DNA of 64,000 bases from Tubiluchus corallicola. Its lineage: Eukaryota; Animalia; Priapulida. Positions within the stretch are counted from its first letter, which is position 1. Each line of letters starts with the position of its first letter. Where the stretch lies: the NCBI GenBank assembly GCA_030141605.1, contig JAQGDQ010000324.1:77745-141744 (forward strand), given 5' to 3'. Made by a program: the position numbers and the translations under genes. The notes under the pieces were generated by a model. That model had not been told where the DNA came from and did no database searches. It saw only the letters and a list, made by a program, of their open reading frames with translations. Positions 3,951 to 63,650 of this stretch are shown here, piece by piece.

Positions 3951-4037
3951 CTTCAATGCTGATGTCTTGTATAGTAAACCTGAGAATAATGGTCCAAATC
4001 AACCCAAGTGTCATTTTTACGTTCCCGTCAACAATTT
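3951..4037 (-). CDS. ACTN: Alpha-actinin exon ([29 protein letters not shown])
   Basis: 87-nt phase 1-1 exon, ttttgcag acceptor, GTATCA donor. End of CH1. Not in the ORF track. Confidence 0.95.
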
Positions 4038-5188: not shown

Positions 5189-5423
5189 CTTCAGCACCAA
5201 TAGAAACTAGGTACACGCCCTTGCTGGCGATGAAGTCCAGAGCTTTGTTGACGTTGGCTATTTTGTGGAAGCGCATTTTACCCTTCTCCGGCTTCGGCAG
5301 CTGTTCCCCGGATATGACTTCCAGGAGGAGCATGAGTTTGAGCCCGTTACAGAAGTCCTGCCCGATGTCCTCGATCTGGGTGCCCGCCTTGCGTAGATGT
5401 GAGTTGCACCATGCTGTGAATGT
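5189..5423 (-). CDS. ACTN: Alpha-actinin exon 2 ([40 protein letters not shown]...LVSIGAE), CH1 domain
   Basis: 235-nt exon, ttcttcag acceptor, GTAAGT donor. Actin-binding CH1 signature motifs. Confidence 0.96.
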
Positions 5424-20184: not shown

Positions 20185-21696
20185 ATGGAAGACATATACA
20201 ATGAAACTAGTGGCCATTTTAACCCGGAAGAAATCATTTTTCATTTCTTCAGCAATGAACCAGCGAAGTTTGAATTTTCGCTGGCCGGGCGTCGTTCGGT
20301 GGCTACTTATCTGATGTTGGTGACTGTACTCAGCGTACTTTTTAACTCGGCGGTGCTCTTCGCAATAGCTCAAGTGCGACAACGCAAAGAACGCTTTTAT
20401 CCAAACTTGTTTATTATAGAAATCGTCTCCATTTCGGACATGGCCACTGCTTTGCTAACCATACCGTTTTTGGTGGTGACGACAGTCAAAGACGCGTGGA
20501 TATTTGGGGAGGTCTTCTGTAATTTGTCTGCTGGTTTGAATACGCTGCTTCTCTCTGGTTCTGTCTATAGCGTTTTGGTTTTGAGTGCTGAAAGGTACGT
20601 GTCAATAGTCAAACCTCATTTGTATAATAGTTTAATAACGCAGAAAAACTGTTACCTGGGGATGGGAGCCGGATGGACGCTGGCGGCCATTTTAACTCTT
20701 GTACAAATTTTAATGGAGAACTACTTTTTCTACCGCGGTAAATCAGGCTGCTTTATGAACTGGTACTCTGGAAGTAGTAATTTGGTATTTAACTACCTAC
20801 ACGTGTGTGTTTACATCGTAACACCAATGGCGCTCATACTTGTACTGGATCTTTTAATAGTCCGCGCTGCCAGACACCACCACTCAAACCCCAATCGGTT
20901 CTCAAACAGGAGTAACTCCATCGTACCGGTAGATGAGCAACACATGAACATATTAAAACGAGCTTCGAAATCAATCAGTTTAGAAGCCGATCACAAAGCC
21001 AATCAAATATCCTTGTATCAACTGAAAGCTGCCAGAGTTCTCCTAACCGTGGTTTTGTTTTTTCTCATTTGTTACACGCCATTTTGGACGGTGAATGTTC
21101 TCGCGTCGCTGGGGTACTTTGCCGGCGCGGTGATTCCAGCGAGGCTCGACAGGGTTGTGACTGTGCTCATCTACACGCACTGCTTTCTGAATGCAATGTT
21201 CTACGGATTCTCCAACCGTAACATCAAGAAGAGCTTGGAACGAAGCTGGCAGAACTTCAAGACTCAGTTAGCGTCACCTACCGCTTCCGTGACGGTAGGA
21301 GTGAGTACAGGTAACGAAGCGACGACACCTTCCCCGTCTCTGCCGCGGGGTGGTACACCCCTCTATTCCTCTTCAAGTGCTGTATCGACCATGGACATTC
21401 ATGATCTATTTCGCAAGCTAGAGCAATTGCAAGGTAACCGACAACAACTGAAGGTGCAGCAAGGATCGACTGCATCTGTGCCAGCTGACATCCGCCAGGA
21501 AGACTCCCATTCAAAAGGAAACAATTCCATTGAACCCATACTGGATGTATACGCTGTGGCAAGAAACTGTATCACGCCTGATTTCAATTCAAGAAATCGC
21601 TTACAGCTGCCTCTACATGTGGTGACTGCAAAAAGTGAAATTCTAAACAAAAGTTTTGCAAACGACGAACAACAGGAACAAGGGGACCTTGACTGA
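20185..21696 (+). CDS. Intronless rhodopsin-like (class A) GPCR, 503 aa, ligand unknown
   Basis: First in-frame ATG at 20185. Seven hydrophobic segments, TM2 SD motif, WIFGEVFC, ERY (DRY-like), TM6 CYTP, TM7 NAMFY, long Ser/Thr-rich C-tail. Confidence 0.93.
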   Translation: MEDIYNETSGHFNPEEIIFHFFSNEPAKFEFSLAGRRSVATYLMLVTVLSVLFNSAVLFAIAQVRQRKERFYPNLFIIEIVSISDMATALLTIPFLVVTTVKDAWIFGEVFCNLSAGLNTLLLSGSVYSVLVLSAERYVSIVKPHLYNSLITQKNCYLGMGAGWTLAAILTLVQILMENYFFYRGKSGCFMNWYSGSSNLVFNYLHVCVYIVTPMALILVLDLLIVRAARHHHSNPNRFSNRSNSIVPVDEQHMNILKRASKSISLEADHKANQISLYQLKAARVLLTVVLFFLICYTPFWTVNVLASLGYFAGAVIPARLDRVVTVLIYTHCFLNAMFYGFSNRNIKKSLERSWQNFKTQLASPTASVTVGVSTGNEATTPSPSLPRGGTPLYSSSSAVSTMDIHDLFRKLEQLQGNRQQLKVQQGSTASVPADIRQEDSHSKGNNSIEPILDVYAVARNCITPDFNSRNRLQLPLHVVTAKSEILNKSFANDEQQEQGDLD

Positions 21697-27635: not shown

Positions 27636-28262
27636 TTAAGAATTGAAAATTTTGGAGACGTTTTGGCATCTACATTTCTTGATGATTTTTATCCGCTGGG
27701 TAAAAGCAGCCGGCGTTTGATCCGGGCATTTGAGCTGCACGTGGCGCCACCTAAACTTGCTCGGCTTGCAGAAGGAACAAGACTTGAACGCTTGAGTGTC
27801 CTTGACGAAATGACCACGCTTCGGTATGAAAAACGAATTGCATTGACCATAGCAGAACCGGTTCACGATGCTGACCGATTCACAGCCTTTGCGTCGAACT
27901 TTTTGGCGGAGTGGTTGCGTTTTACACCAGTCCCGTTTCAGGTATTTCTTCTGAGTAACGATCAGTGCTCGCCGACTGGATCTGAGAATCTGATTTCCAG
28001 GTGTTCTGACGAAGACATTTTTCGTCCGTGACGACACGCTCATGTCCGGTTGATGACCTTTCAACACGAAGTCCGGCTCGCCGAGAATTCTGATGAGACT
28101 GGTACTGTTGAGAAACACAGGGCCATTGTCATCAAGAAATGAATTCTCTTCTGGTATTGTGGCCACTCTTTTGTCCAGGTTCTGATCTTTACCATTTATA
28201 GTCGGGCTCAAGAACAAAAATGATGATGCGTAGATGATAAATGTTACTTCTTTGCTTGATAT
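27636..28262 (-). CDS. GREM: Gremlin (DAN-family cystine-knot BMP antagonist), main coding exon
   Basis: KYLKRDWCKTQPL...GC...NRFCYGQCNSFFIP...SCSFCKP...CP...KCRC closely matches gremlin. The frame stays open up to a tttttcag acceptor (exon start 28262) and begins with a signal-peptide-like stretch. The ATG-bearing exon was not resolved. Confidence 0.92.
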   Translation of the reverse strand: MSSKEVTFIIYASSFLFLSPTINGKDQNLDKRVATIPEENSFLDDNGPVFLNSTSLIRILGEPDFVLKGHQPDMSVSSRTKNVFVRTPGNQILRSSRRALIVTQKKYLKRDWCKTQPLRQKVRRKGCESVSIVNRFCYGQCNSFFIPKRGHFVKDTQAFKSCSFCKPSKFRWRHVQLKCPDQTPAAFTQRIKIIKKCRCQNVSKIFNS

Positions 28263-28449
28263 CTGAAAAATACGTTAATTGTTAGCAAATGATTAGCAAG
28301 CCACTGGCTCACCAGTTGGTTAGTTAACTGCTAAGTTGACTAGAAGATCCAACTAGACGCGATTAGTGAATCCTCAAAGCAAGGTGCCCGCATTCATTTG
28401 GCCTGCGAAACAAAACAGGATTGCGTCTGTCAGTCCACTGGTCATTCTG

Positions 28450-33130: not shown

Positions 33131-34613
33131 TGCTTTTTATTGTACTTCAACATGCAATAGGATATGAAAAATCATCCTGTTTTCCTTTAACAGAACTGAC
33201 TGGCATACCACATTAGCAGAGATAACAATTACAATTATGAAATAAGGGCATTTATCCAGAGCCAGACGGAAATTGCACGGATAATAGATTGGCGTTACAT
33301 GTTACACCGACACACATGTCAAAACACAGTCTGTACAGTCATGTATGTAAAAGTGACATGCGAGTCAACAATTTGATCGAATAAATCCTAATTACATTTT
33401 ACCAGGTCAGACACGGAACGAAACGATCAGTAATTAAAGGGAAAATATGGTATTTTAAAGTATAGGCCTATCCCAAAGCACTTTCCATACAAAGTTATAT
33501 TAGCATTCCTGTTTGAAAGACTTACGTAATTGGAAAAGGAAATTCTTAATAAATCGAGATATTTGCGCCATCTGGTAAAACGGCACTGAATCGCTATCCC
33601 AGTGTGCACCACTGATTCACGAAAACACATTATTGATCTGACTAACACTATAAATAATTCAAGCTTTTCCCTAGTCAGCGAAGAGTGTCATACAAGTGCT
33701 CTGATTATTTGTTCGAACTTTATACAATGTTACCTGAACTTATTTCAAACGACTTTTCAACATAATCAACAAATACCTTAATTACTTCTAAATCATTACT
33801 TCCCATCAAAAATAAAAATTTATCTGCATCACTCATAAGGAAAAATTCTGGTTTAATTGCACTGATGTGATTATATAATCTTCCTCTAAGAAGCGTCATG
33901 AATATTTAAGAATATGATCATTTATAACAAAGTGTAATTCGTCTTTGATTTCATAGCTTAAACAGTGTGTGCATATACGATTCTCAGCCGGGATTTTTCC
34001 AGGTTTAACGTGCCTCTCCCTTTGAATGCACAAAGCATGAGAGCTGATTCTCAGTTTTGTAAATTTCGTTATAGCATATTTGGAATAACCAGAAAGTAAA
34101 TAGTTTTCTAGTTGACATTGTTTTTTGAAGGTTCGATGCGTACGCAGTTTGTTTTGTCAAACCGGAGATTTCTTACACAGAAGAAATAACTGGGCACTTT
34201 TCAATGTTCTCAGTTTTCTTCATGCGTTAGCACCAGTGACCAATGACCATCGATTCAGGTCAGCGGTCTTAGTTAGGGTTCGTTGCAAACTATTAAACCA
34301 ACTGGCGTAAGCGAGTTTCCTACCCCTCAAAGGCTGTTGTAAAGGACGTTGCCCTGTTTGTAAATTGTTCCAGCTAGTTGGCTGGTCATGCTTAAGTTAG
34401 CACATAACTAAGATTGCTGTTCTGTGTTAATCTGTGTTTGTGGGTAATATGAAACGTAAGTGTTCGTGATTATGTGTGACAAATGGTTACAGAACAATGA
34501 ATCATCACACATGGTGGTCGCTAGTTTTGTGTCCCGTGGAAATAAACATCTAACTGTAATGAATTCGAAGCTAAAACTACCCAGGAGCACAGCTTCGAAT
34601 GTGATTTTATAAG

Positions 34614-35678
34614 ATGCATGATAGCTGCACAGAAAAGTTGCAGCTTGTTCATTTATACTGGAAGCAAGTTATACGATTGATCAGCAAACACAAGAAAGTG
34701 ATCATACTGTCATGCTGCGTAATGCAAGTGATGTGGTGCTTAATGTTAACGAACAGTATCAAAGCGCCACCATTTCATCTAGAAGTTGCCGTTCTCGCCT
34801 ATGACAGACCATACTCTCTTGCTCGCTTGCTGAAGTCTCTGCAAGAAGCCACTTATGATGGCGATAACGTCACGTTGAAAATCTGCATCGACAGACCAAG
34901 AAACGATGAAGATCTTTATAAAGAGAACATCAGAATAGCCGAGGAGTTGAACTGGCCCTTTGGTGCCAAAATAGTCAAAGCGCACCCAAAAAATGTTGGC
35001 GCGTACATACAGTGGTACGAGTGCTGGCAGCCAGATGACTCTGATGATATGTTTGGTTTGATACTAGAAGACGATTTGCGTCTATCACCTTATTATTACC
35101 GATGGCTCAAAGCAGCTTTATTGGAGTATAAGGATGATGCTAGTGTCGGTGGGATCACCTTGCAAAGAGGAACTTTGATTGCTCGGAATGGAAAGCACCG
35201 GAATCCTCTGTGTATAGGCTGTCAGGACCCCGTGTTCTTTTATCGCCTTTTGGGCACATGGGGCTTTGCTCCGATGCCCAAAGTCTGGAAGCAGTTTCGA
35301 CATTGGGTGTTCGCGGCCAAGTTGGATCCAGAATTTATTCCATACGTGCGCGGCGAAAAGTTGATGACCAATGCTTGGCTAATGAAGCGACACCTGGTGA
35401 TGAAGACCATGCCAGAATCGTATACCATCTATTTCCTGGGCAGCAATCATCTATTTACCGTTTATGCCAACCTCCCAGACAATCGGACTTTAGCCTGCAA
35501 TCACAGAGAGCCGGGCATGAACTATAAGGGCGGTAGGACCGACATACCTATCGGAGAATGTGATTTTGAACCGCTCATGAGTTGGAGTGACAAGTTTGTT
35601 AAGTTTCCTGTGACTCCCGTGAAACTGGATTGGGATGCATTGCCAGAATTGCCGACAACAACAGCAGAGAATTTATAG
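34614..35678 (+). CDS. Intronless type II membrane glycosyltransferase-like protein (GT-A fold), 354 aa
   Basis: Basic-flanked N-terminal TM; VLAYDRPYSLARLLKSL nucleotide-binding strand; LILEDD DxD-like motif; WPFG, QWYECW, LGTWG and HREPGMNY motifs. Confidence 0.85.
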   Translation: MHDSCTEKLQLVHLYWKQVIRLISKHKKVIILSCCVMQVMWCLMLTNSIKAPPFHLEVAVLAYDRPYSLARLLKSLQEATYDGDNVTLKICIDRPRNDEDLYKENIRIAEELNWPFGAKIVKAHPKNVGAYIQWYECWQPDDSDDMFGLILEDDLRLSPYYYRWLKAALLEYKDDASVGGITLQRGTLIARNGKHRNPLCIGCQDPVFFYRLLGTWGFAPMPKVWKQFRHWVFAAKLDPEFIPYVRGEKLMTNAWLMKRHLVMKTMPESYTIYFLGSNHLFTVYANLPDNRTLACNHREPGMNYKGGRTDIPIGECDFEPLMSWSDKFVKFPVTPVKLDWDALPELPTTTAENL

Positions 35679-36139: not shown

Positions 36140-36689
36140 TAGTTATTGACACTTAATGACTTTGAACACGTGCTAATGGAAATTTGAGTCCCTTACCTCA
36201 CAATGTTTCTCCGCAGGGCTAAGAGCGCGTTCACACTAGCAAGTTTTCTGTCTGACAGCAAGTGTGAACTGCTTTGCGAGTTACTATCGGCAAGTCATTG
36301 CAAACATTAATTGAACACGCTTCCGAATTGCTTGGCGAGAAAACTCCATAGCCTGAATCCGTCTCCACAGTCAGTAACTAGTAACTATCTCGTTAATTTC
36401 TTCCAAGCACAAAAAACTCCTTTACTTACACTAAGAATAACACTGAAAATAACCAAATAAATAAAAAATAACTAAAAATAACACCAGAAATATTCCTATT
36501 GAAATTTTGTATCGCCTACTTACCGCTTTATTGTGCCCAAACCTTGTATTAGCAGCAACGTTGTATAAAATTTGAATTCCCACAATGACCGTTAGGCGCA
36601 GTCATTTTGACAGTATAGGACGTTATAATATAAGTTTAAATAATATTGCGAAAAGTTTGAAAAAATAAGCAGAATTTTCGTAGCACACT

Positions 36690-40040: not shown

Positions 40041-40559
40041 TCACTTATTCAGGAATTCAATAGGAATGGCTGTCGACTGTCCACTCGCCTCCAACGCAGG
40101 TGCTTTCAACGGTGCACGAATGGAAAGCACCCCTCCAGAAAGAGATGACTTCATTTCCTCCATGTCGACCTTATCGGGCAATGTAAATGCTCTGTGAAAC
40201 TCCTTGTACATCTTCCCGTTTTCCCACTCTGCGTCGTGCTTGGCATCAACTCGCAGAGTTCTCCCGTCAGCTGTGATCCGAATCTCTTCCGGTTTGTACT
40301 GCCTCACGTCAAAACACATGTCCAGTGTCTTTCTACCCTGTTCGTCCGTGCCCTCCTTTGTAACCATGCCTTCTCTAAATCCTGAGCCGAAATATTCGTC
40401 CATTCCGCCAGCTCGAGCTCCTCTCAGACGAGTCATGGCGTCCATTTCGCCCAGAACGTCTCTCTCAAAACGTCGCATGTCACGTTGAAATCTGTCCAAG
40501 GCATTGTTCATAGCAGTACTCCCGAACACATCAAAATCATAAAATGGAAAAAGAGACAT
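40041..40559 (-). CDS. Small heat-shock protein (HSP20/alpha-crystallin family), 172 aa, intronless
   Basis: ATG at 40559 (MSLFPFYDFD). ACD FDVRQYKPEEIRIT...EFHRAFTLPDKVD...SSLSGGVLSIRAP. C-terminal IPI motif. Confidence 0.95.
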   Translation of the reverse strand: MSLFPFYDFDVFGSTAMNNALDRFQRDMRRFERDVLGEMDAMTRLRGARAGGMDEYFGSGFREGMVTKEGTDEQGRKTLDMCFDVRQYKPEEIRITADGRTLRVDAKHDAEWENGKMYKEFHRAFTLPDKVDMEEMKSSLSGGVLSIRAPLKAPALEASGQSTAIPIEFLNK

Positions 40560-40702
40560 AATGGTGATGTTGCTAACAGCCAAAATTGATCAAATCAAAC
40601 TCATTAATTTCGCACTTTAACACTTTATTCGCCCCTAACAACTCAAAACTGTGACTGTCTGACTGCAAGAAACGCGAAGATGGCACACTTTTTTATTCCA
40701 TG

Positions 40703-43508: not shown

Positions 43509-44630
43509 TTAATTCTCCTGAGAATCTTGTAAGTGAACTCTTGGTCCAATTATCTTCAAAATTCCGTCTTCGTAGAGACGAGAAGAAATTCGGTCTACAT
43601 TTACACTTTCTGGAATTGTGAATCTCCTATTCACTTCTGTGAAAAAGCTTCCGTGTTCGTCTTCCTGCTCTTTTCTGGCGTGTACCAATACGACGTTATC
43701 AGCAACCTTCACGCTCACGTCTTCAGGTTTGAATTCAGGCAACTTCACGGTGATGATCCAGTCAGCATCCGACTGCTGCAAAATCGTCTCTTTCTCCTTT
43801 CCTGCTGCCTTTTCATCATCTTTAGATTCGACAGCAGCCTTGAGAAACTGTTGACAAACCTCGCTGTCCTCCTTACATGGAGTAACTAGCAGAGGAGACA
43901 CGGGATCTTCTGGCAAAGTAGAAGTTTCTCTCTTGCTCGTGGAAGCCTCATTGGCAACATCCTTCTCAGTAATATCAACTGGAGTCATTCTTTCAGGCTT
44001 GTTGATCTCCATTGAGATGTCAACGATTGGTATTTCCCGAGTATCATCCACATTGCTTTCTGTGTTCTCCATGGTACTTGCAGTTCCTTGATTTCTGTTG
44101 ACTTTTCGCTCCAATGCTTTTGGTGCTTCTATGGTAAGCACGCCATCAGCCAAAGACGACTTTAATGACTTTTCATCCACGCCATCTGGTATCTGAAGTT
44201 TTTGACTAATTTCTTTGACGAAATATCCCCTATGATTCCTGCATTCCTTTCGGGCATGAACCTTGACCGCTCCTTTTTCTAGTCGAACTTTTATGTCATC
44301 AGGATGAACGTCTCCTACAGGCACGTGCACGGCAAATTTTGTAGAGGCATCAGTAATAGTCTCTGCCGTATCCTTTAGCTGTTCTTTTTGTTGCTGATTT
44401 TCTTTCTTCTGCTTCTTGCCGTAGCTGACGCACGTACATGGCTTTCTCCGTTTTTCGTTGCCGTTGTCGTTTGGAAATCCAGCAGCTGGGCAACTTGGAA
44501 ATCTGAGCATGTCCATGACGTTGTACTCCCGCCTTGGAGTTCGCCTCGGAACAAGGAAGTTCCATGCCATGTCTTCATCTAATGGAAGGATATCACGCTC
44601 AAAAACAGCTACTGGTACTTCAACTCGCAT
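43509..44630 (-). CDS. Small heat-shock protein with two alpha-crystallin domains, 373 aa
   Basis: ACD1 FAVHVPVGDVHPDDIKV...SSLADGVLTIEAP; acidic linker with IPI; ACD2 ITVKLPEFKPEDVSVKV...RRFTIPESV...DGILKIIGP. Confidence 0.93.
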   Translation of the reverse strand: MRVEVPVAVFERDILPLDEDMAWNFLVPRRTPRREYNVMDMLRFPSCPAAGFPNDNGNEKRRKPCTCVSYGKKQKKENQQQKEQLKDTAETITDASTKFAVHVPVGDVHPDDIKVRLEKGAVKVHARKECRNHRGYFVKEISQKLQIPDGVDEKSLKSSLADGVLTIEAPKALERKVNRNQGTASTMENTESNVDDTREIPIVDISMEINKPERMTPVDITEKDVANEASTSKRETSTLPEDPVSPLLVTPCKEDSEVCQQFLKAAVESKDDEKAAGKEKETILQQSDADWIITVKLPEFKPEDVSVKVADNVVLVHARKEQEDEHGSFFTEVNRRFTIPESVNVDRISSRLYEDGILKIIGPRVHLQDSQEN

Positions 44631-44868
44631 CTTGGAAACTGCCCAACTATGTTGATCGAATAAATACTCGCAAAACTTCAGTAATTATCAAACTGTATAA
44701 TAATTAACAATGTCACAGTAAATCAGACCTTTTAACTTTATAAAATCACTTTGTTTTCTAATAAAATACGAAGCTATATAAATACACTATAAGTAATGTT
44801 TGCTATACACCTCGTGAACACTCGTTTTCTCAGTGGCTATGTCTGGCATGCCCTGTTCCAGTAAACGC

Positions 44869-49111: not shown

Positions 49112-51151
49112 TAATTAGTAGGATTAATTTTGCATGCATGAATAATGTTTTTTTAATTGTGCAACAAAGATGTCAATTCCTCTTATTTCAGCAATAAGTT
49201 GTGGAAGCGTAACTCTATTATCTTACTAAACATGTCTTCAAGGCAAATCTACGATGTCTACGAATCTGACGACCCGGAATGACCGAAGGCTGACAGCATT
49301 TCTGCTTCCTCCAGTAAGTCTGAAAATTGGGAATGTAAGAAGTTTGATAGTTTCTCCGTTCTTCCGATGGATCAGGAATGTTTGGTAGCCTTTGTGCTCC
49401 TTGCAGTAGCTTGATGATCAGGAATCTCTGAAGTCTGATAGCCTTTCTGCTCTTTCTGGTAGTCATGACGACCAAGACTGTTTCGTATTCTTTCTGCTCT
49501 CTCAGGTTAGTTGTAACATCAGATCATGCCTTTTCTCACCAATCTTGCTTTCTGTAAAATAATCAAATCGGAATTAATCCGCGACTGCACTGCACAAATC
49601 TTCTTCTACGTTTACTCCCCGATTATTGAGCTTCTGTGGTGACAGCAATTTCTCTAGTAATCTGAGCAACCAGCATTAAAACAGTCGGGAAATCTAATAG
49701 AGTGAGTAGCAGACAATCAATGAATGTTTCTAGTCTCCTTTCCAGTTCATGAAGATGCACCGCTATCACTACCGACAATTAATGAAAATAGTAAAAAATT
49801 TGTAGCATCGAGGGCTGAGTTATGAACACTATTTTTTCACTCCACCTGATCGTAAAAATTCGCTATAATTAATAAAATCATAAAAGCATTTGAAGCTATT
49901 CGAATTGGAATCATAAATCATAAATTGGAATTGCAGAGTAAGATGTCAAAGGTTAGAAAAAGTCAAAACAAAAACAAGTTTAGGTTACAGCTAATTTTAA
50001 AATTATAACAAAAATTACGTAGAATTTCTACAATCTATTAAATACCTGTAATTCTCTATTACTTATAATTTTAGATGTATTTCTACTGCCTAGGAGTTTC
50101 TATTGCGAAAATGAGAATTTCGATTGCCAATATTTCTCATTTAGATGCTCCCCCCTCAGTTTCTATGACATCAATTAATAAGCTGCCATAGCAACTAAAA
50201 ATTGGTAACAAACATGTCTCTATTACATGTCCCTTGCACACAAATGTGCCCTTCAATTTCCAGGCATGCCTGCGTGGAAGGACTAGCCTAACTTAGCTAT
50301 TGTAAAGTAATGAGTCGCCGTAAGTAATTTACACAGTAAGTGTTAAAATATCCCAATTAAAGAACAGTTTCTTATGTTTTAACTTGAAAATGACGGAGTA
50401 AAAGACCACGAGAAACTAGTACCCTAAATCTAATTTTTGGTCGTTGGGTTTTATATGCTTTAGATATGATATATCGTTGTTGCAAAATGGTTGTAACTTT
50501 GTTGTGCTGCATTGCACAAGACAAAGTACGAAGTCACTGAAGTAAAAATACAATAGATGGATTACAAAATTAGCATGAACGAGCTCTGTTTAGAAAACCT
50601 TTAACAAGAAATACGAAAGAATTTATTACGTTCCTCTTATATAAACCACCAAAATGATAACATTTTCCATTCTCCCATGCCCCCAATAGTATTCTACTTC
50701 TCAATTACAGCTTTAATAAATAATATATACAAGTCTATTCAATCATCTGTGTATAATGCCAAACTAAGGTCTCTTTTTATTATTATTTTGATACACAAGT
50801 CGAATTTTATTGTATCATAGACAATTTATACCGTATTTCGATTGTAGTCTCTGTAAAATATACTTAAATTATTGTGTACTAACTTTGTAGTAGTATTTTG
50901 GATTATTTTATACGATCTAATATTGTATAAAAGTTCCAGTTGTGAGTCCTTCTGTGTATCTTTTTAATAACGGCTTGTACTTGTAATTTTAATATTTTAA
51001 CTTGCACTTTGTAAAATTACTACTATAATTTGGACCAGATGCATTTGCCATTAAGCAGTGTAAGTTTTTAATCCTTATTAAGGAATGATGAATTTACAAT
51101 GATTTTAATTGTTTTCATCTGTTCTATCTGGCAAATAAAGATTTAATATAC

Positions 51152-51182
<31 letters not shown>

Positions 51183-51605
51183 CCACTGTGTAGCAAGGAG
51201 GAAAGCAGAAGTGAAGACAAATGTGTGCAATCTTGCTGATTGGGCTTAACTGGCCCAATTGCAGTGCATCCGGAAAGAAGATAGTCTATGTGTCCACAAA
51301 GAGGACACTCGACTCTAAAGCAGGACACGAGAAATTCATCTTCATTGCTGTCAAATTCATCTTCAGATGAGGTTAATCAGTAAACTTTTTTTTACTAAAT
51401 TCAGGTGTTTTTATTGTGCAGGTTCCTTGTCCCGTAAAAGTTCTGATGAAGGAAGGAGCCTAAGCTGGCACGCTTACACCAGCCTATCTCAGACAGGTAT
51501 CGAAAGATGCGGGTCGGAGCTCAGCAGAACAGGTAGCAAATAAATGTATGAATCTAACCTGATCCGGCAGGGGACCGGCCCAGAACACTGCAGTTTAGGG
51601 CTGAC

Positions 51606-52033: not shown

Positions 52034-52227
52034 TATCTCACACAAGCTTAATATGTGGAGACATAGATATGCAAATGGCGAGGTCACGCGAAACCCTGAA
52101 CAGAATGACGCCGCCAGGTGTTAAAAAGCAAAGTAACGAAAGCAAGGCTAATGTAGATGGAACCAACGTCCAAAGGAGTGGAGTTGATGTGCCTGAAACG
52201 AACTGCAAGTGCTGTGCAATACAATAG
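52034..52227 (+). CDS. Terminal exon of a small CaaX-ending protein (...MARSRETLNRMTPPGVKKQSNESKANVDGTNVQRSGVDVPETNCKCCAIQ*)
   Basis: tattttcag acceptor, phase 1, open for 194 nt to TAG, ending CKCCAIQ. A compatible phase 1-1 exon lies at 51422-51496 (or -51532). An internal ATG at 52075 gives a 50-aa MARSR peptide. Confidence 0.55.
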
Positions 52228-52686: not shown

Positions 52687-53291
52687 GGCCTGCAAAACAA
52701 TATAAAACATGTAATACCACATGCAGTCTTCGGGGTTGTAACAGCAAGAAATCAATTCATGCTGTCTCTTGCAACATGTCAGGTACGACATAGCATAATA
52801 TTCCCATTCCTCTTCTCTTGTGCAGTTTTTCTTAAAATGTGAGCTACTTAATCGACATTGGTGAATACAACAGTTGCGTAGTACACTAGCATTAATTTTT
52901 ACTATAACGTGTATTTTACAGAATGTCTATTTCCAGTAAAAAATTTTTAATTGTCATTATTGTTTATAGCAACTACATACAACTACAGGAAACCTGTATC
53001 AATTGTTTTATTATGCTGTCATAAAATTCTAAACTCGTTACCATGGATTACATCAGTTAGTTCTAGGTTACCTAGGATTCTGGGCTCGCAAAAAGCAAAA
53101 TGAGACTATAAGGTGCCAGAAACTGGCGGCTCTGAGCCTACTAACTTCTCTGGAGCAAGTTAAAGAGCTTTAGAATGGCTTGCTAAGTGGACTACAGACA
53201 GGAAATCACCATTGCTCGATTGTAGGTCGTCAAATTCAAATGTCAACCATAATTTGTTAACTGAAGGAAGGATACAAACTGGACTAGTGGA

Positions 53292-53658
53292 ATGGCTCGT
53301 AAGTAACATTACTTGTCAGCTCAGGTATTTTGTCCACCTAATCTAGTTTACTTTGTCTACGTGCTAACCTTGTCTCTGTCACTTGTACACCTACAGAACC
53401 GTAACCTATAGTTTCACAACTACTTTCAGAAAACGTTTTCACTTTGCAGGAGCTAGATCTACCAGTGGTTCCAGAAGGAGGCGCTCCAGGGGAAGAAGGA
53501 GGTCACCACAAATGCGCCGCAGCAGTCAAAGTGGCAGATCAAGATCTAGACGATCACGAAGTCGTGGAAGCAGCAAGGGTAAGAAAGGAGGCACTGAAGA
53601 CCCAGAAGCGCCATGGCCACCACTCCCTGATCCACCTGGTCCATGCACCCTTCTGTAG
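53292..53658 (+). CDS. RS-rich protamine-like CaaX peptide, copy A, join(53292..53298,53450..53658), 71 aa MARARSTSGSRRRRSRGRRRSPQMRRSSQSGRSRSRRSRSRGSSKGKKGGTEDPEAPWPPLPDPPGPCTLL
   Basis: ggaATGGCTC/GTAAGT donor, 151-nt intron, ttttcactttgcag acceptor, phase 1 restores the frame. Same structure in the paralogues. Confidence 0.8.
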
Positions 53659-56393
53659 AAATGAGGCAACGAGCCTAAAAGAGACTAGATGCCTAAAATC
53701 AGTCATGCCACTTTATCATAAAATTCCATTTGAAAGAAATTGGCAATAATTATAAATTCATGTTTTTCCACAAGATGTTCGCTTACAACAAAAATGACAA
53801 AAATGACAACAAACAAATTAGCTGTTTTTTTCTATGAAACTATGTGCAGTCCAGTGCTGTGAAAAGTAACTCAAATGTTTATACAAGGCATGAGAAGCAC
53901 TTCTTACTCACAACACACACAGTATGCTTATGGACATTTAAATCAGTTAAAGATGCAAGTTTTGTTTAAAAATAGAAACCATGTACTACGCTTAAGTTCA
54001 TAAAACGTAGAAAAATAAATGATTTTTTTCTATTGGAACTAGTTGTTGCATTTTTGATTTTTCATTCATGTATCTGATGTATTTATTCTTGCCAGTATTT
54101 AACAATATCTGCAAACTAGTCTCAGATGACTATCAATGAAAGTCAAAAAAGTCAAAAAGATTCTTTTCCTTGGTTGCAAAAGAGACTGACTTTTTGTCCA
54201 TTTCTTTGCCTTTTTAACCTTTTTCACTTCCAACTTTTCTGGTAATTGTCAAATATTCCGGTGAGTAAGAAAGAATTTTTGACAGTGGGCCAATTTTTAA
54301 ATTTTGTTTCTTACTTAATCGCATGTTCAAGTGATAAAAGATTAAAGAAGCCAAATGAAACAAAGGGACCCCAGTTTATAGTTTATTCAACTTTAATGGC
54401 ACGTTCAGGCTAGCAAGTTTTCTGTCACGGGCAAACTCGCAAGTGTGAACTGCTTTGCGAATTGCTGCCAGCAAATTATTGCAAACTCTCTGCAGTTGAT
54501 GCGAGATGATTGCCTGCGAGTTACTGTCTAGCGTGAACACTTTGACGAGCTACTCTCGACACTGCTCACAGTGAATAGAGAAGAGAGTGTTAGCTCGCAC
54601 TTACTGTCGGAGAGTAACTAAATACCTAAACCAGTCATACCACTTTGTCAAAAGATTCCACCTGCAAACATTTGATATAGTTGGAAATTTATGGTTTTCC
54701 CAATATATTTGCTTGAAACAAAAAGTGACAAAAAATTTGCTTGTTTCATCCATGAAATTGTGTGCAGTCCAGTGCTGAGAAAAGTAACACAAAATGTTAA
54801 AGACGTGGCCTTTGTTTGAAAATAGGAACCAGGTACTACATTTAAATTCATAAAATCCAGAATGATGAATAAAGAAATTTCTATCAAAACTTGTTATAAG
54901 TTTTTGATATTTCATTCATGTATCTGATCTGTTTATTATTACCTGTATTGAATAACATGTGCAAATCAGTGTAAGACGAGTATCATTGAAAACCAATAAG
55001 GACGCTTTCTCTTTCTTTCCAACATTTCTCTGTGCAAGAAATTTGTTAACTACTGCAGTGAGCAATTATAGCCTGATAATGGCATAAGTTCTAAATTTTG
55101 TTTGTTACCTAATCGTACTTTCACATGATAAAAATACTGCAAAAGTCAATAGAATTCTAGTGAGTAATATTATTTTAAAAGTATTTTCACACATGCCGCG
55201 TTTCATTTAGGTTAAATTATCGCCACCCAGTGGGTGATCTAGAGAGCAAATAGAACAGAAACCAAAGCAAAATGCCCGACATTCATTACCACGAACATTG
55301 GTTGCATTTAGTACGAAACAAAGTGATCCCAGTTTAAAACTAACCAAAAGTAAATGAAAAAATTGTTATAGCTTATTCACCTTTAATGGCACGTTCAGGC
55401 TAGGGAGTTTTCTGTCATGGCAAACTCGCACGTGTGAACTGCTTTGTGAGTTACTGTCAGCAAGCTATTGCAAACTTTCCAACAGTTGCTGCTAGTTACT
55501 GTCTAGCGTGAACCCCTCGTAGAGTGACTCTCGAAACTTCTTGCAGTGCAAATACACAAAAATTCGAAAGATACTATGGTGCATGCGTTAGAATGTGGGA
55601 TGATGAGTTGTCTAACTAATTTTAATGTTGTCCAAAGCTTTTAAATTAAAACACAACTAAATCTGAAGAGATACGATTTTTGAGAAGTAATTAGTTATAT
55701 GTTAAACAATCTAAAATCCATGTGAGCGGCTTAACATACTTACTGTAATAATACTTAACATAATATTGTTACTTAACCTGATCAGCTACATACTTTGCTT
55801 AACTGTCAGTAGATCGGTTCAACTGGTCTATAAAAGAATATAAAACATGTACTACTACATGTAAGCATGTCCTCTGCAGGCTTTGAGTGTGTAAAACAAA
55901 GAAATCAAGCTAGGTATGAAGATTTGCTAATCACATAAATGTAATTTGCTTATGTACCTTTCCTCATACAAAATAGTACATAATGTGTCTGCTACGTTCC
56001 TTTTTTCATGTGCAGTTTTTCTTAAATTACAAGCTACTTAACTGCCTTAGATGGATACAACAACTGTTTAATACTCCAGCACTAATTTTTACTAATGCAT
56101 ATATTACAGGATGTCTAGTTCTCATAGAAGAATTTAAACTGCACTTATAGTTTATTGCAACTACATCTGTGCCAACTGCAAACTGCGGGAAATCCGTATT
56201 AGATGTTCTATTTAATCTGTTGCATCGTCATAAAATAACAAACTCGTTACCAAGGATACAGCGGTTAGTTGTAGGTTACCTAGGATTTGGGTTTCTTGGA
56301 TACTGCAAACAGCAAAATGAGACCATAAGGTGCCAGGCACTCATCAAATTTAAGAATCGTTCCTGAAGGAAGGGTACAAGCTGGACTTGTGAA

Positions 56394-56742
56394 ATGGATC
56401 GTAAGTAACATTACCTGTTAGCTTTACTACTTTGAATACCTAATATAAGCTTGTCTATTTGCTAACTTTATCGTTGTCACTTGTACACTTACAGAAGCAC
56501 AAGTTATTAAATTCACAACTACTTTCAGAACGTGTTTTTGGTTTGCAGGACCAAGATCTGCTAGTAGTTCCAGTAGGAGACGTTCTAGGGGAAGAAGGAG
56601 GTCACCACAAAGGCGCCGCCGCAGTCAAAGTGGCAGATCCAGAACTAGAAGATCTCAAAGTCGTAGAAAAAGCAAGAGCAGAATACGCAAGGCCAGGCCA
56701 GGTACGAAGCCAGGAGGAATATCAAATTGCAAAGTACAGTAG
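56394..56742 (+). CDS. RS-rich CaaX peptide, copy B, join(56394..56400,56549..56742), 66 aa MDRPRSASSSSRRRSRGRRRSPQRRRRSQSGRSRTRRSQSRRKSKSRIRKARPGTKPGGISNCKVQ
   Basis: gaaATGGATC/GTAAGT, 148-nt intron, gtttgcag acceptor. This frame is absent from the ORF track. Confidence 0.8.
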
Positions 56743-58016
56743 AAAAGAATGGAACCTAAAAGAGCCTAAATACCTAAACTAGTCATACCATTTTGCCAAG
56801 TGATTCCATCTGCAAAAATTGGACATAGTTGTAAATATGCGGTTTTTCCCAATATATTTGCTTGCAACAAAGAGTGACAAAAAATTCGTTTGTTTCACCC
56901 ATGAAATAGTGTGCGGTCCAGTGCTGAGAAAAGTAACACAAAAGCTTATTCAAGATGCGATAAGCACTTCTGTACACGACAGACAGTGTACTTATGGACA
57001 TCTAAATCAGTTAAAGATGCGAATTCCACTTTAAAATAGAAACCATGTACTCCATTTCTTTGTTTTTTTACTTCTTTTATTTCCAACATTCCTGCATACA
57101 AGGAATTTGTCAAGCATTCGAATCAGCAGATGGGCATCTGACAGTGGTTCAGGTGTTTTATATTTTTTTAACCTAAGTACACGGCCAAAGTGATAAAAAA
57201 AATTGCGGAAGCCATTAGAATTCTAGTGGGTAATATTATTTAAAGGTACTTTCACACATGCTGTGTTTCATTTTGGTTAAATTACCACGACGCAGCAGGT
57301 GAGAGAGCAAACAGAATAGAAACAAAAGCAAAATGTCTGACATTTGTTATCATGGACATTGTAACCACACAATTAAGTTTGAAACAAAGTGCCCCCAGGT
57401 TAGATCAAGAAAAAAAAGGAAACTATATTGCAGCTCATTCACAGTTAAGCCTTAACACAACTCAATCGCCATTTCATCATTTTCATTTTTAAGCTTTTCA
57501 AACACTATCATATTTTTCATTTCATCTCAGCTTCGTGCATAGTTTCAAGGCTTTATAGATTACGTAGTTTTCAATTAAGGCACGACGTTAAATTTTCTTA
57601 CTGGCTTAACTACAAGAGCAGATCTGACTGTTTGGCAGTTGCAAAAACCACAAAAGGAAAATCTATTTGGTAAATTCATTTCCACGAAATTCTTCAAAAC
57701 ATTCTGTTTGATTTGTCTTCGATTATTCCATGAAATGGCTATCGGAGAGAACAAGTTAAAAATAAAATGAGAAACAGAAGAACGAACGATGTTGAAAAAG
57801 CCAAACTAAGATCTACAAGTGATGGTATCTACATTTTTTAACTTGGTATCAGGATTTGTGATTTTGCCATGGCAGAATACTAAAGCTAAAAACGCTAGAA
57901 TAACTTGCTAAGAAGATTACAAATTGGAAATCACTGTTATTCAATTGTGATGTCATCAAATTCAAATGTCGTTCTTAATTTGTTAACTGATCTAACGGTA
58001 CAAGCTTGGGTGATCA

Positions 58017-58250
58017 ACGAAGCGTAAGTAACTTGGCATGTCTCCACTAGTATTTTGTCTGCCTAGTTTAGTCTACACTGTCTATTTGATAATGTATTTT
58101 TTGACATTGTATATTTAATTGTCTACTTTGTATATTTTACATGTCACTTGCACACGTACAGAATCACACGTTATTGTTTTATTTTCACAAAGCGAATTTT
58201 CACCTTACAGGACCAGGATCTCCCTGCAGTTCTAAAACCAGGTGCTACAA
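58017..58250 (+). pseudogene. Truncated family copy C (ACG in place of ATG; exon 2 breaks off after about 40 nt)
   Basis: acgaagc/gtaagtaac, homologous intron, ccttacag/gaccaggatct at 58211, then a junction into the upstream flank of copy D. Confidence 0.65.
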
Positions 58251-58345
58251 GCTGGAAATTATCATTGTTCAATTGTGACTTCATCAAATTCAAACGTCAT
58301 TCTTAATTTGTTAATCGAAGGAAGGGTACAAGCTGGACTAGTGAA

Positions 58346-58715
58346 ATGGCTCGTAAGTAACACTGCCTGTCAGCTCTAGTGTTTTATCTACCTAATCTAG
58401 TTTACTTTGTCTATTTGCTAGCCTTATCTCTGTCACTTGTACACCTATAGAACCACAAGTTATAGTTTCACAACTACTTTCAGAAAGAGTTTTCACTTTG
58501 CAGGACCTAGATCTACCAGTGGTTCCAGGAGCAGGCGTTCCAGGGGAAGACGAAGGTCAACAGAAAGACACCACCTTAGTCGAAGTGGCAGATCAAGAGC
58601 TAGAAGATCCCAAAGTCGTGGAAGAAGCAAGAGTAGAGCTCGCAGGACTAAACCAGAAGCGGCCAAAAGGGCATATTCACCAAACGATGGCCCACCTGGT
58701 TGCAATATATCGTAG
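58346..58715 (+). CDS. RS-rich CaaX peptide, copy D, join(58346..58352,58504..58715), 72 aa MARPRSTSGSRSRRSRGRRRSTERHHLSRSGRSRARRSQSRGRSKSRARRTKPEAAKRAYSPNDGPPGCNIS
   Basis: gaaATGGCTC/GTAAGT, 151-nt intron, tttgcag acceptor. Confidence 0.8.
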
Positions 58716-60961
58716 AAATGATTGAAGGAGAGGTGCCTAAATCCTTTCGCACACTTTGTAATAAAATCCTATCTGTAAAAAATGGAAATAATTGCAAATT
58801 GACATTTTCCCAAGATGTTTGTTTGCAACAAAAAGTGACAAGAAAATGACTTGTTTCATCTGTGAAACTGCGTGCAGTCAAAAGCTGAGAAAATAAGTCA
58901 GAGGTTTATGCAAAATGTAAGCAACACTAAATTCAAGTACTACAGACAGTACGCTTAACAGAGAAACTCCGTGATGCTCCTCAAAATGTACAAATGATAA
59001 AAGAAATATTCTTTATTATTGAAACTTGCTGTTATACTTTTGATTTGTATTTCAGACAGTCTTTAAATTCATAAATTAATTTTTTTCCTTTAAATGTGAA
59101 ATATAGCAACTTTGTAAAGTTTCAATTTTACACAAAAACAGAAAGCAAATGCTCTAGGTCTTTCTGATACCTTTAACTTTTTCTTGGTGGTTCATAAAAG
59201 AGGAAATGTGGTGTGAAGGTGTCACTTCCAAAGAAAGTCTGGAGCTTCATTTCACGTGTTCTACTCATTAGATGACCCCAGAAACTGCTTAGTCCTTAGT
59301 TATAGCAGTGTTTGTGTTTGATTATCACTTGTCAAAATTTGGCTGAGTAGCATTGCTTACAAATCCAGAGTCATAGAAATGACACCGTTATCCCAGCGTT
59401 ACTAGAATCTTCATTTAGTTTGCGTTTTCTGAAGTTTCAGGAACAAAAAAGTCGGTTAATTTTATTTGCACAATATTTCTGTTTGTCCCTTGCATAAGAA
59501 GTTTTTGCAGCAAAATAACTGCAGTAGAATTCATCACCTTAAAAATATCTCATTATCACACTGACTTGCTTACAGAAAACAGCTGGGTGATAACCAATCA
59601 GTGACTCATTGCTAGTTAACAAAATAAATTCATTTCTATGTATTTTCTTCAGAATGCTCTCAATTGTAACTGGCCTCGTTTATCGCCACAAAGTGGGTAA
59701 TTGAGAGAACAAGTTAAAATGATGATGATGGTTTTAATAAGAAAACAAAAAAAGAGAAGAACTAGGAATGTTGAAAAAGCAAAATGATGCACTTCAGGTG
59801 ATGGTTAAAGATTACAAGTGTTATTTCAAAGAAGATTTAAATGTCTAATACGTAAAAATGAGAATGATACTGCAGCACATGTGATGAAATGTGGAATGAT
59901 AGAAAAATATTGTGAAACTACAAAATTTTAAATGAAAACACCATTAAAACGTAGGAGGCAATTGATTTACGAGAAGTGATTAATTATATTAAACAAGCAA
60001 TGGAGATGAGAAAATGAAGAGGTTTTGAACTTACACTGCACAATGAAGACTAAGCAAAGAAGCTAAAAGAAGTTTGTAGTACCATAGCAAGTTATTTTAG
60101 CGCTTTTTAGCTTGCTCCAGAGTGTCTGGCATCTTATGCTCTCATTTTGTTGTTTGCAATATCCAAGTAGGAAGCTCAGAATCATAAGTAACCTAGGACT
60201 AAACTATGTAACCCTTGGTAATGAGTTTGGAATTTTATGATTGCACAATAGAAGAATTGATGCTAGTTTAATGTAGTTTGTAGCAAGTGCAAGACCTTGT
60301 GCATTTTCTTAATATTTAAACGACTTAATAGTGCCTGTTAGTTTAACAGAGTTTAATAGAGAAGACCATAAAAGTTATTCATATTACAGAAATTTATACA
60401 GCAAATTTATAAGTAGTGATACAGCTGGATGGTGGTATCACTTTTCTAGGCAAGACCTGGAATGAGTTGTCATGGTGAGAACAAATTAGAAATTACTGTT
60501 GTTCAATTATGATGTAATCAGATTCTATTGTGTTTCTTAATTTATCGTTTGATATATTTCGTGTGATTGTAATATGCATATATGTGTTTGTCAATCCTGT
60601 ATTTTACAGAAATCTCTATTTCTCATAGAAGATTTTAATCAAAGTTATAGTCGATAGCAAGTACAAACTACCGGATACTAGTATCAATTCTTCTATTGTG
60701 CTGTGATAAAATGCTAAACTCGTTACCAAATATTACATCGTTCATTGCTAAGTTACCTAAGATTCTGGACTTCCTACTTGGATATTTCAAACAGCAAAAT
60801 GAGAGCATGATATGCCAGACACTTTCTGGAGCAAGCTAAAAGCCCTAAAATAACTTGCTAAGGGACTGAAAATTAGTATTGTTCAAATGTGAGGTCATCA
60901 AGTTAAAATGTCATTCTTAATTTGTTATCTGAAGGAAGGGTACGAGCTGGACTAGTAAGAA

Positions 60962-61289
60962 ATGGATCGTAAGTAACATTACCTGTCAGCTTCACTATAT
61001 TTATTATTGTTTACTTAGTCAAGTCTACCTTGTCTAATAATTTTGCTAACCTCATCTTTGTCACTTGTACATCTACAGAGCCACAAGTTATTATTTCACA
61101 ACTAGTTTCAGAAATAGTTTTCACTTTGCAGGACTAAGATCTTCCCGTAGTTCCAGGAGCAGATGTTCCAGGGGAAGATGGAAGTGACCACAAAAGCGCC
61201 ACCGTAGTCGAAGTGGCAGATCAAGAGCTAGAAGATCCCGAAGTCGTGGAAGAAGCAAGAGTAAGAACAGGCAGGGCCAAACCACGTAG
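60962..61289 (+). pseudogene. RS-rich family copy E with premature stops
   Basis: ATG at 60962, donor at 60969, exon 2 from 61132. TCA to TGA at 61185-61187 and a second stop TAG at 61287-61289. Confidence 0.72.
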
Positions 61290-61424
61290 GGACGGAGACA
61301 TAATTCCATTTGTCACACCTCCTGCTGTTGTGGATTTTTACACCAGCCTGCTGTTGTGTGGATTGATAGTTGCAACAGTTCATTTTTCTTTAACTTTCAT
61401 TGTGTTTTCGTTTAATAATAAGTT

Positions 61425-63650
61425 ATAAGTTATATGTTAAACAATCTAAAATCCATGTGAGTGGCTCTCTTTGCCAAGAACCAAAGTGGTAACGGTACTG
61501 TTACTTAATCTGATCAGGTACATACTTTGCTTAACCATCAGGAGATCGGTTCAACTGGTCTATAAAAGAATATAAAACAAGTACTACTACATGTAAGCAT
61601 GTCCACTGGATGTGTAAAACAAAGAAATCAAGCTAGGTATGAAGATTTGCTAATCACATAAATGTAATTTGCTTATGTACCTTTCCTCATACAAAATAGT
61701 ACATAATGTGTCTGCTACGTTCCTTTTTTCATGTGCAGTTTTTCTTAAATTACAAGCTACTTAACTGCCTTTGATGGATACAACAATTGTTTAATACTCC
61801 AGCACTAATTTTTACTAATGCATATATTACAGGATGTCTAGTTCTCATAGAAGAATTTAAACTGCACTTATAGTTTATTGCAACTACATCTGTGACAACT
61901 GCAAACTCTAATTCTCATAGAAGAATTTAAACTGCACTTATAGTTTATTGCAACTACATATGTGCCAACTGCAAATTGCGGGAAATCTGTATTAGATGTT
62001 CTATTTAATCTGTTGCACTGTCATAAAATAATAAACTCGTTACCAAGGATAAAGCGGTTAGTAGTAGGTTACCTAGGATTTGGGTTTCTTGGATACTGCA
62101 AACAGCAAAATGAGACCATAAGGTGCCAGGCACTCATCAAATTTAAGAATCATTCCTGAAGGAAGGGTACAAGCTGGACTTGTGAAATGGATCGTAAGTA
62201 ACATTACCTGTTAGCTTTACTACTTTGAATACCTAATATAAGCTTGTCTATTTGCTAACTTTATCGTTGTCACTTGTACACTTACAGAAGCACAAGTTAT
62301 TAAATTCACAACTACTTTCAGAACGTGTTTTTGGTTTGCAGGACCAAGATCTGCCAGTAGTTCCAGGAGGAGACGTTCTAGGGGAAGAAGGAAGTCACTA
62401 CAAAGGCGCCGCCGCAGTCAAAGTGGCAGATCCAGAACTAGAAGATCTCAAAGTCGTAGAAAAAGCAAGAGCAGAATAAGCCAGGCCAGGCCAGGTACGA
62501 AGCCAGGAGGAATATCAAATTGCAAAGTACAGTAGAAAAGAATGGAACCTAAAAGAGCCTAAATACCTAAACCAGTCATACCATTTTGCCAAGTGATTCC
62601 ATCTGCAAAAATTGGACATAGTTGTAAATATGCGGTTTTTCCCAATATATTTGCTTGCAAGAAAGAGTGACAAAAAATTCATTTGTTTCACCCATGAAAT
62701 AGTGTGCGGTCCAGTGCTGAGAAAAGTAACACAAAAGTTTATTCAAGATGCGATAAGCACTTCTATACACGACAGACAGTGTACTTATGGACATAGATGT
62801 GGCTTTTGTTTGAAAATAAGAAACAGGTACTACGTTTAAATTCATAAAATGCAGAATGATGAATAAAGAATTCTTTATCGAAACTTGTTATAAGTTTTTG
62901 ATTTTTAATTCATGTATCTGATCTGTTTATTATTACCTGTATTGAATAATATGTGCAAATAGACGTGTATCTAGCCAATAATGTCTCTTTCTATTTTATT
63001 TCCAACATTTCTGCATGCAAGGAATTTGGGCAACTGTTCCAGTGAGCAATTATAGTCATCGATAAAGTTCTAAATTTTGTTTGTTACCTAATCGTGCATT
63101 CACGTGATAAAAATACTGTAAAAGCCACTAGAATTCTGGTGAGTAATATTATTTACGGGTATTTTCACGTACACCGTATTTCATTTAGGTCAAATTGTCA
63201 CCACCCAGTGGGTGATCTAGAGAGCAAACAGAACAGAAACCAAAGCAAAGATTCATCACCACGAATATTGGTTGCATTTAGTATGAAACAAACTGACCCC
63301 AATTTAGAACAAGCCAAAAGCAAATGGGAAAAGTGTTATAGCTTATTCACATTTAATGGCACGTTCAGGCTAGCGAGTTTTCTGTCATGGCAAACTCGCA
63401 AGTGTGAACTGCTTTGCGAGTTAATGGCAGCAAGTTGTTGCGAACTCTCCGCAGTTGATGCGTGTTACTGTCTAGTGTGAACCCCTCGTAGATACAAAAA
63501 ATGAGAGCGATACTACGGCGCATGTGTTAGAAAGTGGGATGCTGAGTCGTCCAACTAATTTTAATGTTGTCCACAGCTTTAAATGGAAACACAATTAAAT
63601 CTGAAGAAGCAGATCATTTTCGAGAAGTAATTAGTTATATTAAACTAGCA
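61425..63650 (+). repeat. Recent segmental duplication: 61425-62790 matches 55690-57000, and 62560-63650 matches 54615-55700
   Basis: Near-identical promoter, intron and 3' flank. The ORF track shows paired near-identical ORFs (56169/61962, 56459/62252, 56819/62612). Confidence 0.9.
62187..62535 (+). CDS. RS-rich CaaX peptide, copy F, join(62187..62193,62342..62535), 66 aa MDRPRSASSSRRRRSRGRRKSLQRRRRSQSGRSRTRRSQSRRKSKSRISQARPGTKPGGISNCKVQ
   Basis: Near-identical to copy B; intact ATG, splice sites and CaaX. Confidence 0.8.

Follow-up and report, generated by a model that had tools for sequence, protein, structure and literature searches.

Tandem genes for Arg/Ser-rich, protamine-like peptides with CaaX ends in a priapulid contig: candidates for lipid-anchored chromatin proteins

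The 64,000-nt window analyzed here (positions 77,745 to 141,744 of contig JAQGDQ010000324.1, Tubiluchus corallicola assembly GCA_030141605.1) carries a tandem family of seven related loci, four of which encode intact Arg/Ser-rich (RS) peptides ending in a CaaX box (Table). A sequence-only reading of this DNA had described six loci. All six start stubs are present, but the family also includes a seventh, 3' remnant that had been overlooked. At 6/6 stubs, a 7-nt coding segment is followed directly by GTAAGT, with ACG replacing ATG in copy 3, and predicted introns of 151, 148, 187, 151, 163 and 148 nt (copies 1 to 6) extend to a common acceptor, (T/C)T(G/A)CAG. Gene models are predicted splicings of the stub to exon 2, and the four junctions proposed earlier for intact copies 1, 2, 4 and 6 (53298/53450, 56400/56549, 58352/58504 and 62193/62342) have correct coordinates on this prediction. 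All five copies that retain ATG have G at both −3 and +4, and no in-frame ATG precedes the start of the RS gene copies before a stop is reached. Copies 2 and 6 are 97.6% identical across 888 nt. Because they are recent duplicates, the four CaaX boxes, all present as claimed, count as only three independent ones. Overall identity among the three independent intact lineages is 73–76%. With three of seven loci broken or reduced to a remnant, turnover of the family is by birth and death.

Table. Coordinates of the RS gene family, the upstream CAIQ gene and other features of the window
Feature	Position	Strand	Details
RS copy 1, intact	53292..53658	+	stub 53292-53298; predicted intron 53299-53449; stop 53658; 71 aa; CTLL 53644-53655
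RS copy 2, intact	56394..56742	+	stub 56394-56400; predicted intron 56401-56548; stop 56742; 66 aa; CKVQ 56728-56739
RS copy 3, broken	58017..58252	+	ACG for ATG; 187-nt intron; exon 2 truncated about 40 nt in by the copy 4 start
RS copy 4, intact	58346..58715	+	stub 58346-58352; predicted intron 58353-58503; stop 58715; 72 aa; CNIS 58701-58712
RS copy 5, broken	60962..61290	+	intron 60969-61131; premature TGA 61185-61187; later 1-nt insertion; no CaaX end
RS copy 6, intact, recent duplicate of copy 2	62187..62535	+	stub 62187-62193; predicted intron 62194-62341; stop 62535; 66 aa; CKVQ 62521-62532
Seventh RS locus, remnant	54611..54746	+	3' untranslated part of the unit only; nhmmer E 1.7e-25
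Upstream gene, candidate start stub	50310..50319	+	ATG plus 7 nt, then phase-1 donor C/GTAAGTAA as in the RS genes
Upstream gene, possible exon	51421-51495	+	candidate; 75 nt, phase-1/1, Arg/Ser-rich
Upstream gene, candidate last exon	52034..52227	+	phase-1 acceptor; 63 codons; Cys cluster (three further Cys-rich residues) and CAIQ
Alpha-actinin exons	108-5471	−	neighbor
Rhodopsin-type G protein-coupled receptor	20149-21696	+	neighbor; intronless
Gremlin/DAN gene	27636-28274	−	best match 62% identity; named matches 38–55%
Two small heat-shock genes	40041-40589, 43509-44684	−	one with several alpha-crystallin domains
Short dispersed repeat with internal repeats	54376-54620, 55366-55550, 63336-63470, 36225-36308, 3193-3285		matched by many X1 contigs and 5 X2 contigs

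Several features of the non-coding sequence accompany these genes. Copies 3 and 4 (57880-58345) lack several hundred upstream bases common to copies 1, 2, 5 and 6, and it is in this stretch that TATA-like boxes occur, about 560–630 nt 5' of the ATG in copies 1, 2 and 6; the copy 4 promoter may be different or damaged. The copy 5 upstream region is present as an inverted duplicate (60078-60282 versus 60662-60867, 84%). Within the intron, a 14-nt stretch roughly 60–70 nt before the acceptor (e.g., 53379-53392) is near-invariant in 6/6 copies, broken ones included. A regulatory element or gene conversion is a possible cause of this conservation and of an intron identity equal to that of the exon.

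On the predicted splice, the intact copies encode peptides of 66–72 aa with tails CTLL, CKVQ, CNIS and CKVQ, in agreement with the sequence-only reading. Each consists of an Arg/Ser core, a variable Pro/Gly linker and a single Cys, which is the only one in the peptide and lies exactly at −4 (4/4). The 42-codon core contains 17–21 Arg plus Lys and 12–14 Ser, RS/SR dipeptides number 10–15 per peptide, and net charge ranges from +17 to +26. Ser and Arg codons are drawn from mixed codon families, so the repeat appears to be held at the protein level. Protamines have an Arg threshold of 30 mol%. Over the whole length, Arg makes up 25, 33, 29 and 32% of copies 1, 2, 4 and 6, with 2/4 peptides at 30% or more, and 38–42% of the first 45 aa; peptide length also fits the protamine range of about 3–10 kDa. 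No Pfam family was detected in the exon-2 peptides of any of the four intact copies, and an alignment of the four peptides had no match in PDB. With no domain in either database, too short a chain and few hydrophobic residues, the peptides lack the winged-helix core of PL-type sperm nuclear basic proteins (SNBPs), which are H1/H5-related. They have the RS dipeptides of SR splicing proteins and, by Pfam, no RNA recognition motif (RRM), nor is there a lamin- or Kugelkern-like rod or coiled coil in such short, domain-free chains. Among the 15 residues preceding the Cys, copies 1, 2, 4 and 6 have 0, 4, 2 and 2 basic and 3, 0, 2 and 0 acidic ones, respectively. Thus, no polybasic run directly precedes the CaaX box, this stretch being net negative in copy 1 and neutral in copy 4.

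Substitution patterns point to the RS frame as the coding frame. Over 41 core codons, ratios of non-synonymous to synonymous rates (dN/dS) were 0.42, 0.60 and 0.39 in this frame versus 1.22, 7.19 and 1.71 in the overlapping acidic frame, a pattern of moderate purifying selection on the RS frame. On a star tree of the three intact lineages, we counted 12 synonymous and 21 non-synonymous changes, and two radical codon changes where 6.9–7.5 were expected (P 0.011–0.019). Broken copy 5 accumulated 2 synonymous versus 14 non-synonymous changes, a relaxed pattern. The case for RS-frame selection is tempered by the intron, which is as conserved (77–87% identity) as the core (82–85%). The protamine-like build and RS-frame coding originally proposed are nonetheless borne out by composition and dN/dS. 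Two outcomes that would have undermined that proposal are disfavored: translation in the acidic +1 frame, by dN/dS above 1 and by stops not shared among copies, and removal of the tail by splicing at the gtaaga near 53579, by the presence of a GTAAGA donor inside exon 2 only in copies 1 and 5.

The CaaX tails share a common origin. Cys codon and stop are homologous across the three lineages, and all boxes descend from one ancestral TGC...TAGAAA. Intervening linkers measure 66, 51 and 69 nt, all multiples of 3, with 24–56% identity among intact copies, and variability among paralogues is highest in the stretch just ahead of the Cys. In the 9 nt from Cys to stop, 4–6 sites differ among lineages; position a2 is occupied by Leu, Val or Ile and the final position X by Leu, Gln or Ser. 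A six-frame scan of the window recovered 608 stop-terminated stretches of at least 40 codons. Cys occupied −4 in 23 of these and a strict CaaX box was present in 6, of which 5 fall within 52.2–62.5 kb, an enrichment in the cluster of more than chance.

Published tables agree with the earlier claim that these tails are acceptable to prenyltransferases. CTLL and CKVQ are positive with 4/4 predictors and CNIS with 3/4 (PMC9231725); the same methods score 17–42% of all 8000 Cxxx sequences as positive. In a yeast Ydj1 screen, enrichment was 4.37 for CKVQ, 1.31 for CNIS and 0.65 for CTLL, alongside 1.61 for the natural sequence CASQ and 0.41 for CVIA (PMC10320760). CTLL appears among retested geranylgeranyltransferase type I (GGTase-I) screen hits in a figure of PMC10942308, and CKVQ is the CENP-F farnesylation motif (PMC4384735). 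The aaX residues are therefore acceptable to farnesyltransferase (FTase) or GGTase-I according to tables for yeast and human, not priapulid, enzymes. Geranylgeranylation is predicted for one copy, and one of two cleavage models predicts that CKVQ remains uncleaved. On balance, functional prenylation of the RS peptides is probable.

Contigs of a second sample (X1; library kind not on record), in which 27% of sampled words were covered, extend these comparisons. At least seven X1 contigs cross the RS core, where the only indel among those listed is a 3-nt in-frame insertion; intron indels comprise one of 7 nt and two of 1 nt. One copy-4-like contig aligns gap-free over the tail with 15 differences, 13 of them placed. 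Eight of its linker residues are altered; of the 10 nt changed in X1 linker sequence, 1 is synonymous. A further paralogue is represented by a 586-nt contig on 58403-58646, with 44 differences from copy 4, the same frame and another linker start. In a further sample, X2, presumed to be RNA, contigs (5) matched parts of the dispersed repeat only and none fell on copy 4, a result that carries no information about expression.

Searches beyond these two samples came back empty. The four-peptide alignment retrieved 0/5422 candidates and nothing among 1.84 billion representatives, pattern matches were confirmed in 0/601 metagenome and 0/600 viral cases, a degenerate DNA pattern of the core had no matches, Atlas returned no usable match, and an exact look-up found 0/8 window proteins in the collection. 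Even paralogues that are 60% identical reach only E 1e-4 to 0.4 when compared with one another at the same database size. Because sensitivity is thus poor beyond near-identical copies, these blanks do not demonstrate absence of homologues. A viral origin of the P6.9 type was considered and rejected given the introns, the host flanks and the lack of a viral locus. We conclude that the family is real, moderately constrained, apparently lineage-restricted and tandem, with an unusual architecture. The literature searched, 2026 reviews included, contained no prenylated protamine, most subscription journals and much of the older SNBP work being beyond its reach.

Immediately upstream lies a candidate gene with a CaaX end of a different type. 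We infer from phase only that its stub at 50310 is linked to the exon at 52034. The extra cysteines of that exon are reminiscent of paralemmin-type palmitoylation. The exon matches no Pfam family and resembles the RS genes in no detectable way; its top Atlas score, 0.79, is a non-hit. CAIQ constitutes a fifth CaaX box and is positive for prenylation with 4/4 predictors (PMC9231725). The start region of the gene has no excess similarity to the RS genes, 98–197 of 300 random windows scoring as high. As a candidate CaaX terminus of a second type next to the RS array, it may indicate where the RS tail came from. Farther upstream on the minus strand, 49218-49523 is a 101-codon basic open frame ending in CLVR, with no Pfam match and with short repeat units in three different frames, which suggests decayed repeat-coding sequence.

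These genes may bear on an unsettled matter in sperm biology: the means by which condensing chromatin is attached to the nuclear envelope, and the way in which this attachment shapes the nucleus. Mylonis and colleagues reportedly described, in 2004, protamine 1 docking on the lamin B receptor (LBR) in the course of spermiogenesis. Protamines are Arg-rich, disordered proteins of 3–10 kDa (PMC13251019), and RS-bearing protamine 1 is an SRPK1 substrate according to a title cited in PMC13327716. PMC5617974 names LBR as a site at which protamine docks transiently, and green fluorescent protein carrying just a nuclear localization signal and a CaaX box (GFP-NLS-CaaX) reaches and deforms the nuclear membrane (PMC2947476). 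We tentatively predict, with a little less than even confidence, that the RS peptides are prenylated, protamine-like germ-cell chromatin peptides tethered to the inner nuclear membrane. The Arg/Ser block would bind and condense DNA in male germ cells, its basic residues serving as both nuclear localization signal and DNA binder, and SRPK-type phosphorylation of RS dipeptides would tune binding as in protamine 1. The Pro/Gly linker would act as a spacer between the DNA-binding block and the lipid, while the C-terminal prenyl group would dock condensing chromatin on the nuclear envelope, perhaps bending it. Thereby, one peptide would do the combined job of protamine 1 and LBR in mammals, and its tail might later be removed, as in prelamin A. 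The peptides are candidate members of the protamines, which take the place of histones in sperm chromatin; the build would, by analogy, work like a protamine with a lamin-type anchor. A bolder version is that this is the first prenylated protamine, a lipid-anchored sperm peptide that condenses DNA and molds the envelope from inside, which would have arisen when a CaaX mini-protein gene resembling the upstream neighbor acquired an RS block by grafting. We regard this version as doubtful.

Three elements of this picture are read from the DNA itself: the gene models (on predicted splicing), homology of the Cys and stop codons, and RS-frame selection. Several observations weigh against the remainder of the proposal. 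We infer the sperm step purely from composition and gene turnover. Whole-length Arg is 25–33%, and each peptide holds 1–4 acidic residues. The synonymous excess in the intact lineages is borderline (P 0.04–0.10), and the intron has rival acceptors at −20 and −53, with CTAAC at −86. In neutral simulations of the tail (10–20% change per branch, three lineages, conditional on the stop being kept), Cys was retained in all three lineages in 20–47% of runs and a full CaaX box in 4.5–22%; thus, tail conservation alone is not significant. Yeast FTase takes a majority of CXXX sequences (PMC10320760), and this broad reactivity lowers the weight of a permissive aaX. Finally, the CaaX box is kept in 3/3 window lineages, but a copy-2-like X1 contig loses it through a frameshifting deletion of 1 nt near 56690, which lengthens the open frame to 76 codons and leaves no Cys at −4. 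That contig (524 nt, spanning 525 reference bases at a depth of 19.5) is the only one listed over the copy 2 tail and may be another dying copy, but it shows that at least one haplotype can dispense with the CKVQ type. Its loss of the box partly matches one of the outcomes that the sequence-only reading had named as refuting.

Explanations other than envelope-tethered sperm chromatin peptides account for parts of this evidence. We judge it improbable that the predicted structure is mistaken or that no translation takes place, with upstream acceptors leading into the acidic frame or the array being a decaying duplicated segment. The presence of AG at −20 in 5/6 copies and at −53/−54 in 5/6, with CTAAC about 33 nt ahead of the latter in 4/6, would suit such a scheme, as would an intron conserved like the core and 3/7 loci broken. 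However, the acidic frame entered from the −20 acceptor has dN/dS of 1.2–7.2 and meets unshared stops that leave 108, 86, 82, 54 and 10 aa, and the −53/−54 acceptor yields frames that differ among copies. Moreover, the −20 AG of copy 1 is destroyed in X1 (one contig), where 7 nt are also inserted between that site and the final acceptor, and the start context described above favors the stub. It is unlikely that the genes encode ordinary protamine-like sperm proteins in which prenylation is irrelevant and the −4 Cys is simply inherited, forms disulfide cross-links or belongs to a tail that the protein can do without. Neutral retention of Cys, poor linker conservation, and the X1 contigs with a lost box or an altered linker all point toward this possibility. 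Countering it are the position of the sole Cys precisely at −4, an aliphatic a2 encoded throughout by three different codons, the preservation of frame by every linker length change in intact window copies, and the rarity of strict CaaX ends among long stretches of the window (6/608).

Prenylation could also be real and sperm chromatin the wrong destination. Somatic nuclear-envelope peptides, RS-domain peptides of RNA or speckles, or peptides held at the plasma membrane in the manner of K-Ras4B or MARCKS until Ser phosphorylation frees them would fit the 10–15 RS/SR dipeptides, and K-Ras4B is indeed targeted to the plasma membrane by a polybasic region plus farnesyl (PMC13524398). The adjoining exon, non-basic and likewise CaaX-ended, would make the locus a possible cluster of membrane mini-proteins. 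We find these options unlikely given the absence of an RRM or other domain and a rapid tandem birth and death that would fit reproductive genes. The K-Ras4B-like alternative offered by the sequence-only reading is weakened in particular, because the Pro/Gly linker separates the basic block from the Cys and is neutral or acidic just before it in 2/3 lineages, unlike the K-Ras4B tail. A very improbable alternative is an exported lipopeptide signal precursor akin to fungal a-factor, with the Pro/Gly stretch and prenyl-Cys as mature signal and the RS block as pro-region. Small size and CaaX end are consistent with such a precursor, and the pre-Cys stretch varies most among paralogues and differs among X1 variants too. 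A disposable pro-region would, however, have no need of selection on the RS block, the X1 linker changes (10 nt, 1 of them synonymous) are explained by relaxed constraint no less readily than by positive selection, and one of two cleavage models leaves CKVQ uncleaved.

If the RS peptides do tether sperm chromatin, they may help explain the extreme sperm nuclei of priapulids, provided that such sperm occur in the host or in related species; the sperm nucleus of Tubiluchus troglodytes is double-helical (PMC5371643). They would be the first candidate sperm basic protein for priapulids within the literature searched. Combining a DNA-binding block with one mutable Cys in about 70 residues, such a peptide is also a minimal, directly testable system, and belongs to a gene class likely to be missed by annotation on account of its 7-nt coding first exon and low complexity. 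Should the Cys prove incidental, the locus would be a lineage-specific protamine-like cluster of modest interest.

Other features of the window are listed in the Table; the alpha-actinin, receptor, gremlin and small heat-shock genes mark it as animal DNA, and the short dispersed repeat is likely a small mobile element. An intronless glycosyltransferase-like gene at 34605-35678 (+) has no Pfam match. Its best 4 of 51 matches are Priapulus caudatus paralogues (43–55% identity; 445–279 bits versus 197 for the next), followed among named matches by red algae (38–40%) above Capitella and Mactra, making this a patchy family. On this one marker gene, the host is likely a priapulid other than P. caudatus; gremlin was uninformative in this respect.

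Known systems resemble the RS peptides in part. Like protamines and other P-type SNBPs, they are small and tandemly encoded, with a block expected to be disordered (Arg content over the first 45 aa, 38–42%), with RS dipeptides and, in two copies, with a MAR start; unlike them, they have a Pro/Gly linker with acidic residues, a single terminal Cys within a CaaX box and no match in Pfam, PDB or the other databases searched. Hepatitis delta large antigen and petunia CaM53 are found in the nucleus or associated with nucleic acids and have a prenylated C-terminus, but are larger, folded or coiled-coil. The same applies to chromatin-associated CENP-F (PMC4384735), whose CKVQ box is that of copies 2 and 6, and to yeast Nap1 (CKQS; PMC10320760), none of these being of protamine type. 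The K-Ras4B tail (PMC13524398) similarly combines positive charge, phosphorylatable serines and CaaX, but the RS peptides use Arg/Ser rather than Lys, place their charge 15–25 residues from the Cys and lack a GTPase domain. Farnesylated systems of the inner nuclear membrane, namely lamin tails, Drosophila Kugelkern and GFP-NLS-CaaX (PMC2947476), share the basic nuclear-targeting stretch joined to a CaaX box, whereas the RS peptides, at about 70 aa and strongly basic, are devoid of the rod, coiled coil and Ig fold of lamins and Kugelkern. When protamine 1 docks on LBR (PMC5617974), an RS-containing basic protein is likewise recruited to the inner nuclear membrane, either ahead of chromatin condensation or in its course; that system relies on a distinct membrane protein as anchor, whereas here a putative lipid on the peptide itself would take this role.

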